Shown piece after piece: positions 12,637 to 59,254 of a stretch of 64,000 nucleotides of DNA. The position numbers and the translations under genes were made by a program. The notes under the pieces are model-generated. The model was not told the origin of the DNA and ran no database searches. It saw nothing but the letters and a program-made list of their open reading frames with translations. How positions within the stretch are numbered: the first letter of the stretch is position 1; each line of letters begins with the position of its first letter. This stretch comes from a virus (taxonomy: Duplodnaviria; Caudoviricetes), in the IMG/VR virus record IMGVR_UViG_3300010340_001122; one strand, written 5' to 3'.

Positions 12637-12755
12637 AAAACCTTAAAAAGATATTTTAAACATAAAATTATAACAATATATAAATTTCTAAAAAATAAAA
12701 CATACTAATATGCAAGAAATGATATCGAAAGATGTTAAGAGATCCACTCGTAGTA

Positions 12756-14378
12756 ATGAGGTTGAATGTTAAGAAAAGAAATGGCCAAACAGAAGTATTT
12801 GAGGCCGAAAAAATTAATAAGGTTTTAATTTGGGCTACATCTGGTATAAGTGGAGTTTCCGCATCTGACGTGGCGATGAACTCCCGACTACAATTTTATC
12901 CAGGTATAAAAACCTCTGAAATACACAAAGTTTTGATTCAATCAGCTGTTGATTTGATTTCAGATAAAAATCCAAACTATCAATATGTTGCTTCGAACTT
13001 ATTGAATTATTTAGTTCGTAAAGAAGTTTTTGAAACGAAGAAAGAATTACCATCTCTTTTAGAATGTATCAACCGAAACATTAAAGTAGATTTATATGAT
13101 TCATTGATATTGTCAAAATATAATAAAGAAGAAATTTCTAAATGTGATTCATATATAAAACATGAACGAGATTATGATTTGACATATGCTGGTCTTCAAC
13201 AATTGATTGATAAATATCTTGTTAAAGATAGAAGTACTGGTAAATCATATGAAACACCACAATTTTGCTTTATGATGATTGCGATGACTGTTTTTGCAGA
13301 CTATGATAAATCTACAAGAATTGAATTTGTAAAAGAATTGTATGATATGATTTCTGAACATAAGATTTCTCTACCAACACCGATTATGGCTGGTATTAGA
13401 ACTCCTAATCGTCAATTTTCAAGTTGTACTTTAATTGAGGTTGGTGATTCACTAGACTCAATATTTCATGGTAATGTTGCAATTGGTCAGTATGTTGCTA
13501 AAAGAGCTGGTATTGGTATTAATGCTGGTCAAATTAGAGCACTTGGTTCTAAAGTTCGTAACGGTGAAGTAGTTCACACAGGTGTTATTCCTTTCTTCAA
13601 AATGTTTCAATCAACTCTACACTCTTGTTCTCAAGGAGGTATTCGTAAAGGATCAGCAACTCTTTATTTCCCTTGGTGGCATAAAGAGATTGAAGATGTT
13701 CTTGTATTGAAAAATAACAAAGGTACTGATGATAATCGTGTAAGACACATGGATTATGGTATTCAGTTTGAGAAAACATTCTATAATCGATTCATTTCAA
13801 ACGGTGATATTGCACTTTTCTCCCCTTCTGATGTACCAGGTCTTTATGATGTTTTTGGACTTCCAGAATTTGAAGAAATGTATTTGAAATACGAATCTGA
13901 TAAAAAGATTCCTAAGAAATTTGTTAAGGCGAGGGAGTTGATGAATTCTTTTGCTCAAGAAAGAATAGGTACTGGACGTATGTATGTTATGAATATCGAT
14001 AATGTTAATACAAATTCTCCTTTTATTGAAAGATTGAAAATGTCTAATCTTTGTTTAGATATAGAGACATCATTTGTAAATTCTGTTGAAATAGATGGTG
14101 TTTTATATGAGAAAATGCAGTTATCTGAACTAATTGAAATATTCAATAGTGGTAAAAACATAAAAGTCCTATCTAAGAATTTATATAATGGTGAGATGGA
14201 ATTCAAACAGGTTGAGAAGGCATGGATAACTAAAGAGGATGCTGATGTTATGGAAATAGAAGATGTTGATACAGGATTTAAAATAATTTGTACACCAGAC
14301 CACTTAATTTTTACAAAAAATAGAGGATGGATTGAGGCACAAAATTTAGATGAGAATGATATTTTAGATTTAATTTAA
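12756..14378 (+). CDS. nrdA: Class Ia ribonucleotide reductase alpha, N-terminal fragment fused to N-intein
   Basis: ATP-cone (VKKRNG), ETPQF, SLPTP, QFSSC, SCSQGGIRKG, KMSNL then intein CLD...TPDH; start at ATG 12756 or 12732. Confidence 0.95.
   Translation: MRLNVKKRNGQTEVFEAEKINKVLIWATSGISGVSASDVAMNSRLQFYPGIKTSEIHKVLIQSAVDLISDKNPNYQYVASNLLNYLVRKEVFETKKELPSLLECINRNIKVDLYDSLILSKYNKEEISKCDSYIKHERDYDLTYAGLQQLIDKYLVKDRSTGKSYETPQFCFMMIAMTVFADYDKSTRIEFVKELYDMISEHKISLPTPIMAGIRTPNRQFSSCTLIEVGDSLDSIFHGNVAIGQYVAKRAGIGINAGQIRALGSKVRNGEVVHTGVIPFFKMFQSTLHSCSQGGIRKGSATLYFPWWHKEIEDVLVLKNNKGTDDNRVRHMDYGIQFEKTFYNRFISNGDIALFSPSDVPGLYDVFGLPEFEEMYLKYESDKKIPKKFVKARELMNSFAQERIGTGRMYVMNIDNVNTNSPFIERLKMSNLCLDIETSFVNSVEIDGVLYEKMQLSELIEIFNSGKNIKVLSKNLYNGEMEFKQVEKAWITKEDADVMEIEDVDTGFKIICTPDHLIFTKNRGWIEAQNLDENDILDLI
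14052..14375 (+). mobile_element. Split intein, N-terminal half (108 aa)
   Basis: Begins at Cys (CLDIETS) right after SNL; block B CTPDH; RGWIEAQNLDEND; then stop. Confidence 0.93.
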
Positions 14379-21256: not shown

Positions 21257-21383
21257 AAAATCCACACTTGAATTTTTTTAATTTTTTGACATCATATATA
21301 ATAACATCTGAATATTTAAAAATTTTAAACTTTATTAAAACTTTTAAAACTTTTAATATAAAAGATAGACAATCAAAAATAAT

Positions 21384-52667: not shown

Positions 52668-52739
52668 TGCGGGGTAGAGCAGAGGCAGCTCGTTAGGCTC
52701 ATAACCTAAAGGTCGGTGGTTCGATTCCACCCCCCGCTA
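52668..52739 (+). tRNA. tRNA-Met(CAT), initiator-like
   Basis: TTAGG-CTCATAA-CCTAA anticodon arm, GGTTCGATTCC, unpaired 1:72 (T/T). Confidence 0.92.
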
Positions 52740-52746
52740 CAAAACT

Positions 52747-52774
52747 AAAACCACTAACAATAGTGGTTTTTTTT
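52747..52774 (+). terminator. Intrinsic terminator after tRNA-Met
   Basis: AAAACCACTA-ACAA-TAGTGGTTTTTTTT. Confidence 0.88.
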
Positions 52775-52821
52775 ATTTTCATTTATTATATAGGGAGTGA
52801 AACGGAATTTATATATACCTT

Positions 52822-54882: not shown

Positions 54883-54933
54883 AAAGGAGAGAAAACTTTT
54901 TTAATATATAATAATATAATTTTTACAAAAATA

Positions 54934-55003: not shown

Positions 55004-55084
55004 ATGGCAACTTTTGAAACATATTATTATGAAGCGTATGAGGAACACTCAGCGACTGGCAATACTATGTTCGTGAAAAGTTGA
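55004..55084 (+). CDS. Leader peptide 1 (Tyr/Glu-rich) MATFETYYYEAYEEHSATGNTMFVKS
   Basis: 26 codons, 4 TAT + 3 GAA + 1 GAG within codons 5-14; A-rich 5' UTR; followed by terminator. Confidence 0.85.
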   Translation: MATFETYYYEAYEEHSATGNTMFVKS

Positions 55085-55112
55085 TATAGAATATTAACTA
55101 AAAACGCAAAGT

Positions 55113-55148
55113 AACCCAGTCATTCAATAAAAAATGACTGGGTTTTTT
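55113..55148 (+). terminator. Attenuator terminator 1
   Basis: AACCCAGTCATT-N8-AATGACTGGGTTTTTT; 5' arm can alternatively pair with GACTGG 55054..55059. Confidence 0.9.
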
Positions 55149-55802: not shown

Positions 55803-55821
55803 ACCAAAATAACGATTGATT

Positions 55822-56895
55822 ATGAAAGGTCTTCAAAGATTTCCAAATATATTCACACTACCAAATAGAAAACTTAGAATTAAATTTGGAATAGATCCAA
55901 CATCTGATAAATTACATTTAGGTCATTTAATTCCTTTACAGATTGTAAAAGAATTTAAAGATAGAGGTGACCAAATTGATATTGTAATTGGTACATTTAC
56001 TGCTCAACTTGGTGATCCAAGTGGTAAAAACTCAATGAGACCAATACTTTCTTTCAATCAAACCCTAAAAAACTCAGAGTCTGTAATTGAACAAATTAAA
56101 AGAATCTTAGGAAATGATGTCAATATACATCTTAATCATACATGGTTTGAGAACATGTCAATGATAGAGATGATGAATTTAATGTCAAAATTTACTGTTG
56201 GTAATTTACTTAATAGAGATTCTTTTCAAAATAGAATTAAGGAATCTAATCCTATTGGGATGCATGAATTAATGGTTCCAATTTTACAAGGACTTGATTC
56301 TGTATTTCTTAAATCCGATGTTGAGATTGGTGGTTCAGATCAACTTTTTAATTTCAAAATTAGCCGTGAACTTCAAGTTATTTCTGGTCAAGAACCAGAG
56401 AATTGCTTGTTAGCTCCTATTATTAATGGCACCGATGGGAGAAAAATGTCTAAAACATTTAATAATTGTATATTTATCAACGATACTCCTCAAGATGTTT
56501 TTGGTAAGTGTATGTCTATTTCAGATGATACAATGGAAGAATGGTCTCAAATATTTTTAATTGATTCAACCATTACACATCCGATGCTTAAAAAGAAAAA
56601 ATTGGCACATAAAATTACACATTTAATTTGGGGAGAGGATTTGGCAAATAGTGCCATGAATCATTTTGAGACTGTTATTCAAGGTCGAAATATTCCAGAT
56701 GAAATGCCTGAAACCAATGATAGAAATCTAATTAATGTTGTTAAAATACTAAGAAATACTTCTATTAACCAAAGTAGGAGACTTCTTGAGTCAAATGCTG
56801 TAAAAGTTAACGGTGAAGTTGTTAATAGTAATATTGAGTTATCAATTGGTGATGTTGTGAAAGTTGGCAAAAAAGATTTTGTAAAGATTGTTTAG
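55822..56895 (+). CDS. tyrS: Tyrosyl-tRNA synthetase
   Basis: KFGIDPT..LHLGH, GDPSG, LQG.D, GGSDQ.FN, KMSKT, C-terminal S4 domain. Confidence 0.93.
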   Translation: MKGLQRFPNIFTLPNRKLRIKFGIDPTSDKLHLGHLIPLQIVKEFKDRGDQIDIVIGTFTAQLGDPSGKNSMRPILSFNQTLKNSESVIEQIKRILGNDVNIHLNHTWFENMSMIEMMNLMSKFTVGNLLNRDSFQNRIKESNPIGMHELMVPILQGLDSVFLKSDVEIGGSDQLFNFKISRELQVISGQEPENCLLAPIINGTDGRKMSKTFNNCIFINDTPQDVFGKCMSISDDTMEEWSQIFLIDSTITHPMLKKKKLAHKITHLIWGEDLANSAMNHFETVIQGRNIPDEMPETNDRNLINVVKILRNTSINQSRRLLESNAVKVNGEVVNSNIELSIGDVVKVGKKDFVKIV

Positions 56896-56937: not shown

Positions 56938-57294
56938 ATGATAACAGTAATAGATAGAAATATATTAAATCAATTAAACGAATCAGGTATTGTGCTTGTC
57001 AATACTGACGATATTGATGGTCTTCTAATGGGGAAAGAGTTAATGTCATCGTCTCCTGATCCAAATGAATCTAAATTAGTTCCAACGGTTTTATATTCTT
57101 TATATCTAACATTTAAAGAGATTGATAAGGTTTTTATTAACTCAGTTAAAATTTCGGATAAAGACATTAAATTCGTTCATACAGATAAAAATAATTTAGT
57201 AATAAGAAATATTGATTTTTGTGATGATATTGTAATAGATTATGATACAAAACAAGATATGAGAGAAAAAAAACTAAACAAATTCATAAAATGA
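56938..57294 (+). CDS. Hypothetical protein with C-terminal REKKLNKF motif
   Basis: ATG 56938; C-terminal motif family. Confidence 0.6.
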   Translation: MITVIDRNILNQLNESGIVLVNTDDIDGLLMGKELMSSSPDPNESKLVPTVLYSLYLTFKEIDKVFINSVKISDKDIKFVHTDKNNLVIRNIDFCDDIVIDYDTKQDMREKKLNKFIK

Positions 57295-57555
57295 CGACAA
57301 AAGAAAAAGCGATTCAAATTTTAGATAGATTTATTCAATTAAATGGAAATTCTTTCTTTGCTAAAGAATGTTCTATTTTTAGTTGATGAAATATTAAAAC
57401 AATTTGATGGTTTGCATAAACCTGAATATTGCGCTTTTGATGCGATAGGTGAGAGAAAATTTACATTTGAAAGTGAATATCCTAATTATATGACAGGATA
57501 TGATATGATTGAATATTGGAAACAAGTGAAAATTGAAATTGATAAAATTCTTTAA
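57291..57555 (+). pseudogene. Frameshifted MT.KEKA...AK.C...VDEIL...YW.QVK.EI-type phage protein
   Basis: MTTKEKA..AKECSI in one frame and LVDEIL..YWKQVKIEI in another; shift in T-run 57376..57380. Confidence 0.65.
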
Positions 57556-57563
57556 AAAAATTA

Positions 57564-57595
57564 TTAGGAAGATAAAACTTTTTTATATATATTTG
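57564..57595 (+). promoter_or_regulatory. Bacteroidota-type promoter for leader 2 / tRNA array 2
   Basis: TTAG-N20-TATATTTG. Confidence 0.7.
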
Positions 57596-57617
57596 TATAA
57601 CATAAAACAGAAATAAA

Positions 57618-57695
57618 ATGAAAGCAGTTAATAACATATCAATCATAGGGAACGGCGCGATAGCGGGCGGTAGACCCATTATGCTGATTGGTTAA
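57618..57695 (+). CDS. Leader peptide 2 (Ile/Gly/Ala-rich) MKAVNNISIIGNGAIAGGRPIMLIG
   Basis: 25 codons; 3 ATA, 5 Gly, 3 Ala; A-rich 5' UTR; followed by terminator. Confidence 0.85.
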   Translation: MKAVNNISIIGNGAIAGGRPIMLIG

Positions 57696-57722
57696 GTATT
57701 AACTCTTTCATAAAGAATACTT

Positions 57723-57756
57723 AAAAACCCAGTCAGTAAATTGACTGGGTTTTTTT
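57723..57756 (+). terminator. Attenuator terminator 2
   Basis: AAAAACCCAGTCAG-TAAA-TTGACTGGGTTTTTTT; 5' arm alternatively pairs with CTGATTGG 57684..57691. Confidence 0.9.
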
Positions 57757-57760
57757 ATTT

Positions 57761-57841
57761 CGGCAGGTACCGTTGGTGTCTTATACACACTATACACGTA
57801 GCGGGAAGTTGAAAACGTGGGTTCGAATCCCACTCTGCCGA
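57761..57841 (+). ncRNA. Non-canonical tRNA-like RNA, TAT (Ile AUA) anticodon, no D arm, long variable region
   Basis: CGGCAGG/TCTGCCG, GGTGT-CTTATAC-ACACT, GTGGG-TTCGAAT-CCCAC. Confidence 0.75.
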
Positions 57842-57843
57842 CA

Positions 57844-57917
57844 AACTCAAACTTGTGTTAACTCTTTGAGAGTGAAGTTGTGTACACAACAGGTTAATTC
57901 CCATAAGTCCCTGAGTT
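57844..57917 (+). ncRNA. Unidentified structured RNA inside tRNA array 2
   Basis: AACTCA/TGAGTT, ACTTGTG/CATAAGT, TTAAC/GTTAA stacked stems with two apical hairpins. Confidence 0.5.
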
Positions 57918-57920
57918 ACT

Positions 57921-57994
57921 GCAGAAGTGGTGTTTAATGGTTAGCATGTGAGACTTCCACTCTCAAGGTGCCGGTTCGAATCCGGTCTTCTGCT
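57921..57994 (+). tRNA. tRNA-Gly(TCC)
   Basis: TGAGA-CTTCCAC-TCTCA; U73. Confidence 0.93.
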
Positions 57995-58000
57995 CAATAA

Positions 58001-58072
58001 GCGGGTATCGTATAACGGTTATTACTCTAGCCTTCCAAGCCTGAGATCTCGGTTCGATTCCGGGTGCCCGCT
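58001..58072 (+). tRNA. tRNA-Gly(TCC), mismatched anticodon stem
   Basis: GCGGGTA/TGCCCGC, loop CTTCCAA, U73. Confidence 0.82.
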
Positions 58073-58121
58073 CAAAAAGATGGAAAACTTTTAAAACCCA
58101 TCCCACCAGGATGTAAAAATC

Positions 58122-58194
58122 GCGAAAGTAGCTCAGCTGGTAGAGCTTCTCCTTGCCAAGGAGAAGGCCGCGGGTTCAAGTCCCGTCTTTCGCT
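58122..58194 (+). tRNA. tRNA-Gly(GCC)
   Basis: TCTCC-TTGCCAA-GGAGA; canonical D and T arms; U73. Confidence 0.95.
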
Positions 58195-58200
58195 CTAAAT

Positions 58201-58238
58201 GCAGGATGATCCACCGTTGTATCACGGTGCCTGCTCCA
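58201..58238 (+). ncRNA. Gly-like minihelix ending in TCCA
   Basis: GCAGG/CCTGC-T-CCA with CACCGT/ACGGTG hairpin. Confidence 0.55.
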
Positions 58239-58311
58239 GGGGGATTAGTTTTAATGGCTAAAACACTTGTCTGGCTGACAAGATTTATCGGTTCGAATCC
58301 GGTATCCTCCA
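58239..58311 (+). tRNA. tRNA-Ala(GGC)
   Basis: CTTGT-CTGGCTG-ACAAG; G3:U70 pair; A73. Confidence 0.88.
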
Positions 58312-58317
58312 CAACAT

Positions 58318-58392
58318 GGGGGTGCATGTACTGAGGCTAAGCGAAAAGCACTTGCAATGCTTTTGATGTGATTTCGACTATCACCATCTCCA
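58318..58392 (+). tRNA. tRNA-Ala(TGC)
   Basis: AAGCA-CTTGCAA-TGCTT; G3:U70; T arm GTGAT-TTCGACT-ATCAC. Confidence 0.85.
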
Positions 58393-58447
58393 CGAGTTCG
58401 ATAGAGAAACTCTCCACTTTAATATATATTTAAAAAGTAATATTAAA

Positions 58448-59254
58448 ATGAAGTGTAAAAATATTGAGTGTCAAAATGAAACTACTGGTAAGAGGATTTA
58501 TTGCTCTCTTTCTTGTAGAAATATATTTGTTAATAAGTATCTAAGAAGTTATGATAAAGTTTCTGATACTTTTCAACAAAAGAAAAAAGAAAGAGAAGAA
58601 AAATATTTAGAAAATCCAAAAAAATGTCTTCACTGCGAAGGTATAATACCATATGATTCTAGAGAGAATAATTATTGTAACCATTCTTGTCATTCGAAAT
58701 CAACAAATGGTGATAGAGAATATACATGGGGTGATAAGATAAGTGAGGGTGTGAAAAAATATATTGAAGTAAATGGATACTTTGGAGCATTAAAATCAAA
58801 TTCAGGTAGACCTAAAGGTTTTGTGGAAAAAATATGTCCAAACTGTGAAAAAACTTTCAATAAAAAAACTAAATATTGTAATGATCCTTGTCGTAGAGAA
58901 TTTGAAAGAAAAAACATGGACGAATACCAAAAGTACAAATTAGATGCTAATTTCAAATTCAATCTTAAAGATTATTCAGATGAATTTGACTTTTCTTTGG
59001 TTAAAGAACATGGATGGTATTCACCGACAAATAAAAATAATAATTTAGATGGTGTGAGTAGAGATCATATGTTTTCAGTCAGAGAAGGATTTGAAAAAGG
59101 AATTGATCCAAAAATAATTTCACATCCGGCTAATTGTAGATTAATGATTCATAATGAGAATATAAGTAAAAATAAAAAATCTGTTATAACGATTGAAGAG
59201 TTGTTAGATAGAATAGAAAAATTTGAACAAAAATATAAAAATATAAAGATATAG
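58448..59254 (+). CDS. HNH homing endonuclease with Cys-rich repeats
   Basis: Three C..C....YC...C units; SRDHMFSV...HPANC.LM.H.EN..K. Confidence 0.85.
   Translation: MKCKNIECQNETTGKRIYCSLSCRNIFVNKYLRSYDKVSDTFQQKKKEREEKYLENPKKCLHCEGIIPYDSRENNYCNHSCHSKSTNGDREYTWGDKISEGVKKYIEVNGYFGALKSNSGRPKGFVEKICPNCEKTFNKKTKYCNDPCRREFERKNMDEYQKYKLDANFKFNLKDYSDEFDFSLVKEHGWYSPTNKNNNLDGVSRDHMFSVREGFEKGIDPKIISHPANCRLMIHNENISKNKKSVITIEELLDRIEKFEQKYKNIKI

Follow-up and report, generated by a model that had tools for sequence, protein, structure and literature searches.

A likely leader-peptide transcription attenuator controlling an Ile/Gly/Ala tRNA cluster in a phage

Why phages carry tRNAs, and how these are dosed, is a long-standing question. 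The locus studied here raises it in a specific form, with a short open reading frame (ORF) full of Ile, Gly and Ala codons and an intrinsic terminator standing directly ahead of a cluster of Ile-, Gly- and Ala-type tRNA genes in a giant phage. Does a ribosome on this ORF decide whether the tRNAs are made? An initial annotation of the locus had read it as an attenuator. We analyzed the whole 64,000-nucleotide stretch of Caudoviricetes DNA that carries it (IMG/VR record IMGVR_UViG_3300010340_001122), referred to here as the window, together with related units from other phages. Every sequence-level feature of the attenuator reading is present, and the codon match between leader and tRNAs recurs in the related units, so that reading gains support. 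We consider it likely that the unit is a ribosome-mediated (leader-peptide) transcription attenuator controlling the phage tRNA cluster, a conclusion in which leader translation, ribosome stalling and the regulatory outcome are inferred without expression data.

The window is AT-rich (~27% GC) and encodes a family B DNA polymerase, helicases, a Ro60/TROVE protein and ankyrin-repeat proteins. The closest public relatives of its tRNA region are LR745206.1 and LR756502.1, two uncultured phage assemblies of 635-642 kb. The Bacteroidota-type promoter pattern TTTG-N18-22-TAnnTTTG is over-represented (13 occurrences versus 5.1 ± 2.1 expected), an enrichment that hints at a Bacteroidota host without proving one, and the phage probably infects a member of that phylum. 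The window also carries a large-subunit ribonucleotide reductase gene with an intein splicing domain (12732-14378), and two overlapping ORFs (57291-57386 and 57343-57555) resemble a single gene broken by a frameshift. The features of the Ile/Gly/Ala unit, its tRNA cluster and a sister unit are collected in Table 1.

Table 1. Coordinates of the Ile/Gly/Ala unit, the tRNA cluster behind it and the sister unit in the window
Feature	Position	Strand	Description
Putative promoter region	57575-57595	+	Motif AAACTTTTTTATATATA (57575-57591), overlapping a Bacteroidota-type -7 box TATATTTG (57588-57595)
A-rich 5' UTR	After promoter region, to 57617	+	Assigned from sequence
Leader ORF	57618-57695	+	25 codons, MKAVNNISIIGNGAIAGGRPIMLIG; ATG 57618, stop TAA 57693-57695
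Control codons 7-18	57636-57671	+	10 of 12 encode Ile, Gly or Ala
Predicted 1:2 hairpin (anti-antiterminator)	57618-57711	+	Segment 1 (57618-57659) pairs with segment 2 (57664-57711); −32.0 kcal/mol
Predicted antiterminator 2:3	57684-57736	+	57684-57700 pairs with 57716-57736; 4-nt bulge 57725-28; may extend back to 57672
Intrinsic terminator	57723-57756	+	Stem 57723-57735 with 57742-57754, then T7
D-arm-less tRNA-like RNA	57761-57841	+	Anticodon loop CUUAUAC (UAU, reads AUA); Rfam tRNA 31.9 bits; no ARAGORN call
tRNA-Gly(TCC)	57921-57995	+	Ordinary tRNA
tRNA-Gly(TCC)	58001-58073	+	Ordinary tRNA
tRNA-Gly(GCC)	58122-58195	+	Ordinary tRNA
tRNA-Ala(GGC)	58239-58312	+	Ordinary tRNA
tRNA-like element	58318-58395	+	Acceptor stem, T arm and possible anticodon stem-loop AAGCA-CUUGCAA-UGCUU (UGC, Ala)
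Sister unit (attenuator 1)	55004-55148	+	Tyr/Glu leader MATFETYYYEAYEEHSATGNTMFVKS (55004-55084); terminator stem 55115-55142

On re-reading, codons 7 to 18 of the leader were exactly those initially annotated (ATA TCA ATC ATA GGG AAC GGC GCG ATA GCG GGC GGT), so that ATA occurs three times, GGC and GCG twice each, and ATC, GGG and GGT once each among the control codons. The accompanying remark that so GC-rich a codon choice is unusual for this genome also held: in the 54 long ORFs of the window, which served as the codon-usage reference, GGC and GGG make up 3% and 5% of Gly codons and GCG makes up 6% of Ala codons. Ile, Gly and Ala together account for 14 of 24 leader residues, compared to an expected fraction of 0.17 (binomial P = 7 × 10−6), and the Gly-plus-Ala content was matched by none of the 272 other small ORFs in the window. 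A similar bias was observed in the leaders of related units, where GCG supplies 80% of Ala codons (6% in the genome) and GGC supplies 40% of Gly codons (3% in the genome). In leaders that precede a tRNA-Ile(UAU), 67% of Ile codons are ATA, compared to 38% in the genome, and this raised ATA use fits the UAU anticodon. One feature counts against the attenuator reading, which is that a conserved N-terminal N-N-I-S and three Asn codons have no matching tRNA downstream.

The Ile/Gly/Ala leader has near-identical counterparts (L050, L216 and L243) and a larger set of homologues (L001, L002, L035, L042, L065, L109, L129, L133, L159 and others). Across these homologues, composition is kept and residue order is shuffled (IIGNGAIAGG, IAVIGNGAGAI, VGVIAIGAGS, AIIGGGAGAS and others), as expected if what counts is how many of each codon there are, not the peptide itself. 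The codons GGC, GCG and GGG are almost invariant at synonymous sites in these leaders, with the pair GGC GCG nearly invariant, and the GC-rich patch GGCGCGGGG is conserved at the nucleotide level, synonymous sites included. In the relatives, RNAalifold predicted base pairing between GGC GCG and the antiterminator strand. The two codons may thus also serve as segment 1, which leaves isoacceptor-specific sensing not established, and the GC-rich codon choice may have been kept for RNA structure rather than for isoacceptor sensing. No covariation was seen in the GGCGCG/CUGAGU pairing in the relatives.

We searched for the terminator motif in viral and metagenome contigs and in the two phage records (LR745206.1 and LR756502.1), kept matches with a tRNA no more than 400 nt downstream, and took as the leader the longest ATG frame that ended 5 to 70 nt before the stem, without any filter on composition. 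This gave 54 distinct leaders of 18 to 38 residues on related AT-rich phage contigs, with the stop codon 23 to 42 nt ahead of the terminator stem. One unit with a terminator and tRNAs but no convincing leader (L068) was excluded from the statistics, another was cut by the contig end (L136), and a third had no ORF (L208). A looser terminator pattern produced 232 matches, mostly in unrelated phages, and a tRNA lay downstream of 41 of them.

The make-up of the leaders tracks the tRNAs behind them. Cores of QQQQQ or QQQQQQ stand ahead of three tRNA-Gln genes (L041 and L306), HTNPVHHP ahead of His and Pro tRNAs (L242), and YYKQYYYK ahead of Lys, Lys and Tyr tRNAs (L171). The core YTTYQKQYQPKGGKPYG and its relatives precede Pro, Gln, Lys, Tyr, Thr and Gly tRNAs (L016, L060 and L204), leaders rich in N, D, Y, E and M precede Met, Asn, Asp, Tyr and Glu tRNAs (L015, L058, L094, L158 and L286), and IEAIGYAYEAG precedes a merged Tyr, Glu, Ile, Gly and Ala cluster (L102, L149, L193, L201 and L228). 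Over the 54 leaders, the excess of cognate residues over the proteome prediction averaged 4.2 per leader, a value that none of 20,000 permutations of the tRNA sets reached. The share of leader residues that are E, Y, G, A, Q or P was, for each of these, 2 to 20 times higher with the matching tRNA downstream (P from 10−5 to 10−8), and for I the ratio was 1.6 (P = 0.0016). With the exception of Met, the amino acids with several cases were enriched only where their own tRNA was present. When each of eight classes was represented by a single leader, the true leader-to-tRNA pairing was the single best of 40,320 permutations. Since this observed match recurs over units with different amino-acid sets, it cannot be explained by chance, by a membrane-peptide gene or by a plain terminator.

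The last two of these explanations belong to a fixed, unregulated arrangement, in which the small ORF would be a gene for a short hydrophobic, Ile/Gly/Ala-rich membrane-like peptide that ends in a plain terminator, and the tRNAs would come from constant read-through or another promoter. Taken alone, IIGNGAIAGG does resemble part of a transmembrane helix. Ordinary genes can also end in this terminator stem, such as a DnaK-like gene in LR756502 (L190; C-terminal translation judged by eye, with no family search), and the tRNA-Met gene at 52668 indicates that a plain promoter is possible for tRNAs in this phage. However, the other leader classes are not hydrophobic (QQQQQ, YYYEE and HHP) and still match their own tRNA sets, for which reason the membrane-peptide ORF was rejected, and the shuffling of residue order within a kept composition likewise argues against it. 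A second promoter is also hard to place: the first tRNA-like gene begins 4 nt past the end of the U tract, which leaves no room for one between 57756 and 57761. Together with the covarying complementarity to the terminator arm described below, these observations make the unregulated arrangement highly unlikely.

The motif AAACTTTTTTATATATA in the region upstream of the leader was kept in 11 of 11 aligned Ile/Gly/Ala leaders. The region contains the -7 box only, without the rest of the TTTG-N18-22-TAnnTTTG pattern, and its promoter function is inferred. A motif of the form AAAACTTTT(T/TT)AATATA(T/A)A has only three copies in the window (21347-21362, 54893-54910 and 57575-57591), each preceding a non-coding RNA unit, namely a Y-RNA-like/Ro60 region and the two tRNA leaders; it may represent a promoter class for stable RNAs. 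A TAnnTTTG box stands immediately ahead of the tRNA-Met gene (52668-52775); this gene ends in a terminator of its own and lacks a leader, which makes it an internal contrast to the attenuated clusters.

The secondary structures that had been proposed for the leader RNA were recovered by computation. The unconstrained minimum-energy fold of 57600-57758 consisted of the 1:2 hairpin plus the terminator and contained the annotated 1:2 helix (57638-45 with 57685-92). The annotated 2:3 helix (57684-91/57729-36 stacked on 57692-700/57716-24) appeared after the 5' half was masked and had an energy of −18.5 kcal/mol in isolation. The terminator was found where it had been claimed, with a 13- to 14-bp stem followed by T7 (−17.9 kcal/mol), and the leader stop codon does lie within the 2:3 helix. 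The duplex between leader and terminator arm in the window was predicted at −13.1 kcal/mol, compared to −9.0 kcal/mol with swapped terminator arms.

We modeled the ribosome as a mask that blocks everything 5' of its leading edge from pairing. In the window, a stall mask at codon 7, 9 or 13 to 15 flipped the equilibrium fold to a 17-bp antiterminator, and a mask at the stop codon left the terminator alone. In a nascent-RNA model, where the RNA was folded as transcribed only to the terminator loop, segment 2 of the window captured the terminator 5' arm for stalls at codons 2 to 19, and this arm was free for later positions, for a ribosome at the stop codon and in untranslated RNA. Control codons 7 to 18 all fall at positions from which, in these models, a stalled ribosome does not block the antiterminator. 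The predicted folds of the window have the geometry of a classical attenuator.

We observed the same design in the relatives at the level of complementarity. In each leader, the control codons are followed by a stretch that can pair with the 5' arm of the terminator behind that leader; arm variants TCTGAC, TCAA, TCC and TCTC are matched by leader segments GTCAGAC, TTGACTGG, GGACTGG and GAGACTG. Native leader/terminator-arm duplexes were 2.2 kcal/mol better than swapped ones (Wilcoxon P = 7 × 10−5), with z = −2.2 versus shuffled leaders. In an alignment of ten Ile/Gly/Ala units, the antiterminator helix was paired in 95.6% of cells versus 21-44% for slid controls, with one compensatory change from U-A to A-U. 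In nascent-RNA folds, the antiterminator formed with a stalled ribosome in all 54 leaders and with a ribosome at the stop codon in 2 of 54, being masked in the remaining 52. The antitermination-competent zone holds 373 of 421 cognate codons (89%) versus 538 of 964 non-cognate codons (56%).

These models also set limits. Nascent-RNA folds predicted the 1:2 helix in 15 of 54 leaders and the antiterminator without translation in 39 of 54, so far as such models can tell; the 1:2 helix, clear in the window, is not a general feature of the leader family. In full-length equilibrium folds, the terminator wins in nearly every relative at any ribosome position. The switch must therefore rest on co-transcriptional (kinetic) folding, which we modeled only crudely.

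The position of the stop codon bears on a reversed, feed-forward logic, by which fast translation of the leader would keep the ribosome near the polymerase and suppress the terminator, with plentiful tRNA leading to more tRNA. Closely coupled ribosomes can suppress terminators that lie a few bases past a stop codon, according to PMC4824070. In this unit, however, 33 nt separate the end of the stop codon from the CCAGTC core of the stem, and the spacing of 23 to 42 nt in the relatives is likewise past the ribosome's reach. Because the ribosome at the stop codon also masks the antiterminator in nearly all leaders, as the 52 cases above indicate, we give the feed-forward logic only a very slim chance of being correct.

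An RNA-only switch would dispense with the ribosome altogether: the leader RNA would bind an uncharged tRNA, as a T-box does, or a protein, and the reading frame would be incidental. Such tRNA-sensing leaders are known for translation-apparatus genes, and the nucleotide-level conservation of the GC-rich patch, synonymous sites included, is what recommends the idea here. It has to contend with the reading frame itself, since an ATG-to-stop frame is present in ~64 of 67 terminator-plus-tRNA cases, compared to 21% of shuffled upstream sequences, and the placement of the stop codon with respect to the antiterminator is fixed. Moreover, each leader holds several different codons that correspond to several different tRNAs, a match that one specifier codon could not provide, and no Rfam family, known leader families and the T-box included, matched the phage leader at threshold. 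We find an RNA-only switch scarcely credible and return to the ribosome-mediated attenuator. Sub-threshold Rfam matches to the rnk leader, VrrA and the trpB motif were rejected, as they were driven by the terminator hairpin alone.

The initial annotation had also stated that the leader codons can be decoded by downstream TAT, TCC, GCC and TGC anticodons, and this was only partly borne out. The TCC (two copies) and GCC anticodons belong to ordinary tRNAs, whereas TAT and TGC are found only in non-canonical tRNA-like RNAs. Decoding by these Ile(UAU) and Ala(UGC) tRNA-like RNAs of the window is unproven. Neither ARAGORN nor the Rfam tRNA model called the element at 58318-58395, homologues of which were identified by eye in L001 and L002, and relatives have canonical tRNA-Ile(TAT) and tRNA-Ala(TGC) genes at comparable places. 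The tRNA-like RNA at 57761-57841 has a long variable region. Two further elements lie between the tRNAs. A spacer, GAAAACWTTAAAMCC ... CCAGGATGTAAAA, is conserved at 58074-58121 of the window, ~1942-1984 of L001 and ~1383-1424 of L002, and might either direct RNA processing or, as an internal start site, let transcription bypass the attenuator. Between tRNA-Gly(GCC) and tRNA-Ala, a stable 43-nt hairpin that ends in CCA (58196-58238; −14.6 kcal/mol, z = −2.7) resembles a minihelix.

The sister unit lies 2.6 kb upstream of the Ile/Gly/Ala unit, with Glu and Tyr tRNAs and then tyrS behind its terminator. Its terminator stem (CCCAGTCA/TGACTGGG) is identical to that of the Ile/Gly/Ala unit, and these are the only two copies in the window. 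The tyrS gene (55816-56895) encodes a class I Tyr/Trp-type tRNA synthetase (Pfam tRNA-synt_1b, 1 × 10−53) and may be part of the unit controlled by the sister attenuator. Leaders with terminators also occur in the two phage records ahead of other genes of this kind. In LR756502.1 (L188, ~426,150-427,640), the leader MRKIIKLKDDRYLWTDCLAD precedes a class II Asp/Lys/Asn-type aminoacyl-tRNA synthetase gene, and in LR745206.1 (L185, ~345,020-346,060), the leader MRALHTYKITIDLG precedes a 67-amino-acid ORF and a HisRS-like fragment. Neither of these two leaders showed a clear single-amino-acid enrichment, and we excluded them from the support for the attenuator.

We propose the following mechanism. 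Transcription would start ~15-20 nt before the leader ATG, and a ribosome would translate the 25-codon leader as RNA polymerase approaches the terminator. A shortage of charged tRNAs for Ile(UAU), Gly and Ala would slow the decoding of AUA, GGN and GCN codons, and the ribosome would stall within codons 7 to 18. A ribosome stalled there would hold segment 1, so that segment 2 (57684-57700) could pair with the terminator 5' arm (57716-57736); with the antiterminator formed, there would be no terminator, and the polymerase would read on into the genes for the tRNA-like Ile(UAU) RNA, tRNA-Gly and tRNA-Ala. With fast decoding, the ribosome would run on to the final codons or to the stop (57693), where it would cover segment 2, the terminator would form, and transcription would end at ~57756. 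Without translation, the 1:2 hairpin would sequester segment 2, again with termination as the outcome. The Ile/Gly/Ala tRNAs are thus probably made only when ribosomes read the control codons slowly, although no experiment has addressed this. Because the products of the regulated genes would relieve the stall, the unit would act as a negative-feedback homeostat for tRNA supply.

Such attenuators could in addition serve as damage sensors in the conflict with the host. An anticodon nuclease or phage-induced host shut-off would deplete tRNAs, the leader ribosome would stall, and replacement tRNAs would be switched on; the D-arm-less tRNA-like RNAs that open each array would perhaps go unrecognized by nucleases. 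We offer this as a speculation that is unlikely to be right on present evidence. Were it true, each tRNA block would be an inducible counter-defense module with its own codon-coded trigger.

If tRNA blocks are each governed by a codon-matched leader, the phage would gauge decoding capacity codon by codon and top up shortages only, in a self-correcting loop whose regulated product is also the signal. The sequence rule predicts which tRNAs stand behind a given leader, and units of this kind could provide compact, programmable tRNA-supply sensors for synthetic biology.

Among known systems, the closest in mechanism are the leader-peptide attenuators of enterobacterial amino-acid operons, such as trpL, hisL, leuL, thrL and the multivalent ilvGMEDA leader. 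The phage unit has in common with them a promoter (here inferred), a short leader ORF in which control codons are clustered, predicted 2:3 and 3:4 helices as alternatives, the latter being the intrinsic terminator, and a stop codon that falls within or next to segment 2; a 1:2 helix folds clearly in the window but was predicted in only 15 of 54 leaders. Like the ilv and thr leaders, the phage leader would sense several amino acids together. The phage leader has no sequence similarity to the enterobacterial ones, and the phage unit differs from them in lying in a phage and in controlling tRNAs rather than biosynthetic enzymes. Since the regulated genes are tRNAs, the sensed quantity, which is the decoding capacity for particular codons, is made directly by the genes under control.

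In the pheM-pheST attenuator of Escherichia coli, a leader peptide controls an aminoacyl-tRNA synthetase. The likeness is that a translation-apparatus gene is placed under a leader peptide with codons that match the tRNA or amino acid served, and the phage clade has its own leader-plus-terminator arrangements before aminoacyl-tRNA synthetase genes (L188 and L185), as well as tyrS after the Tyr/Glu cluster of the window. The regulated products of the phage unit, unlike those of pheM-pheST, are the tRNAs themselves. T-box riboswitches (RF00230) also sense tRNA supply and set read-through by a terminator/antiterminator pair. In contrast to the phage unit, with its ORF and many control codons, a T-box needs no translation and binds one uncharged tRNA directly, using its T-box sequence and a specifier codon, and no T-box match was found at the gathering threshold in the window or at E ≤ 1 on 57560-58450.

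Bacterial tRNA operons are controlled at the promoter level (growth-rate and stringent control), and phages such as T4 carry tRNA clusters. Unlike the phage leader unit, these operons and the T4 cluster are regulated at the promoter or by infection timing, and we know of none with a translated leader that reads out the codons of its own tRNAs. A full-text literature search turned up no account of tRNA genes under the control of a leader peptide. The mechanism itself is already known from trpL, hisL, leuL and ilvL and, in spirit, from pheM-pheST; what is new is the tRNA-gene target, the closed feedback loop and the phage setting. The unit would thereby bring RNA genes, and phages that probably infect Bacteroidota, within the range of classical attenuation, in a setting where attenuators have been little studied.
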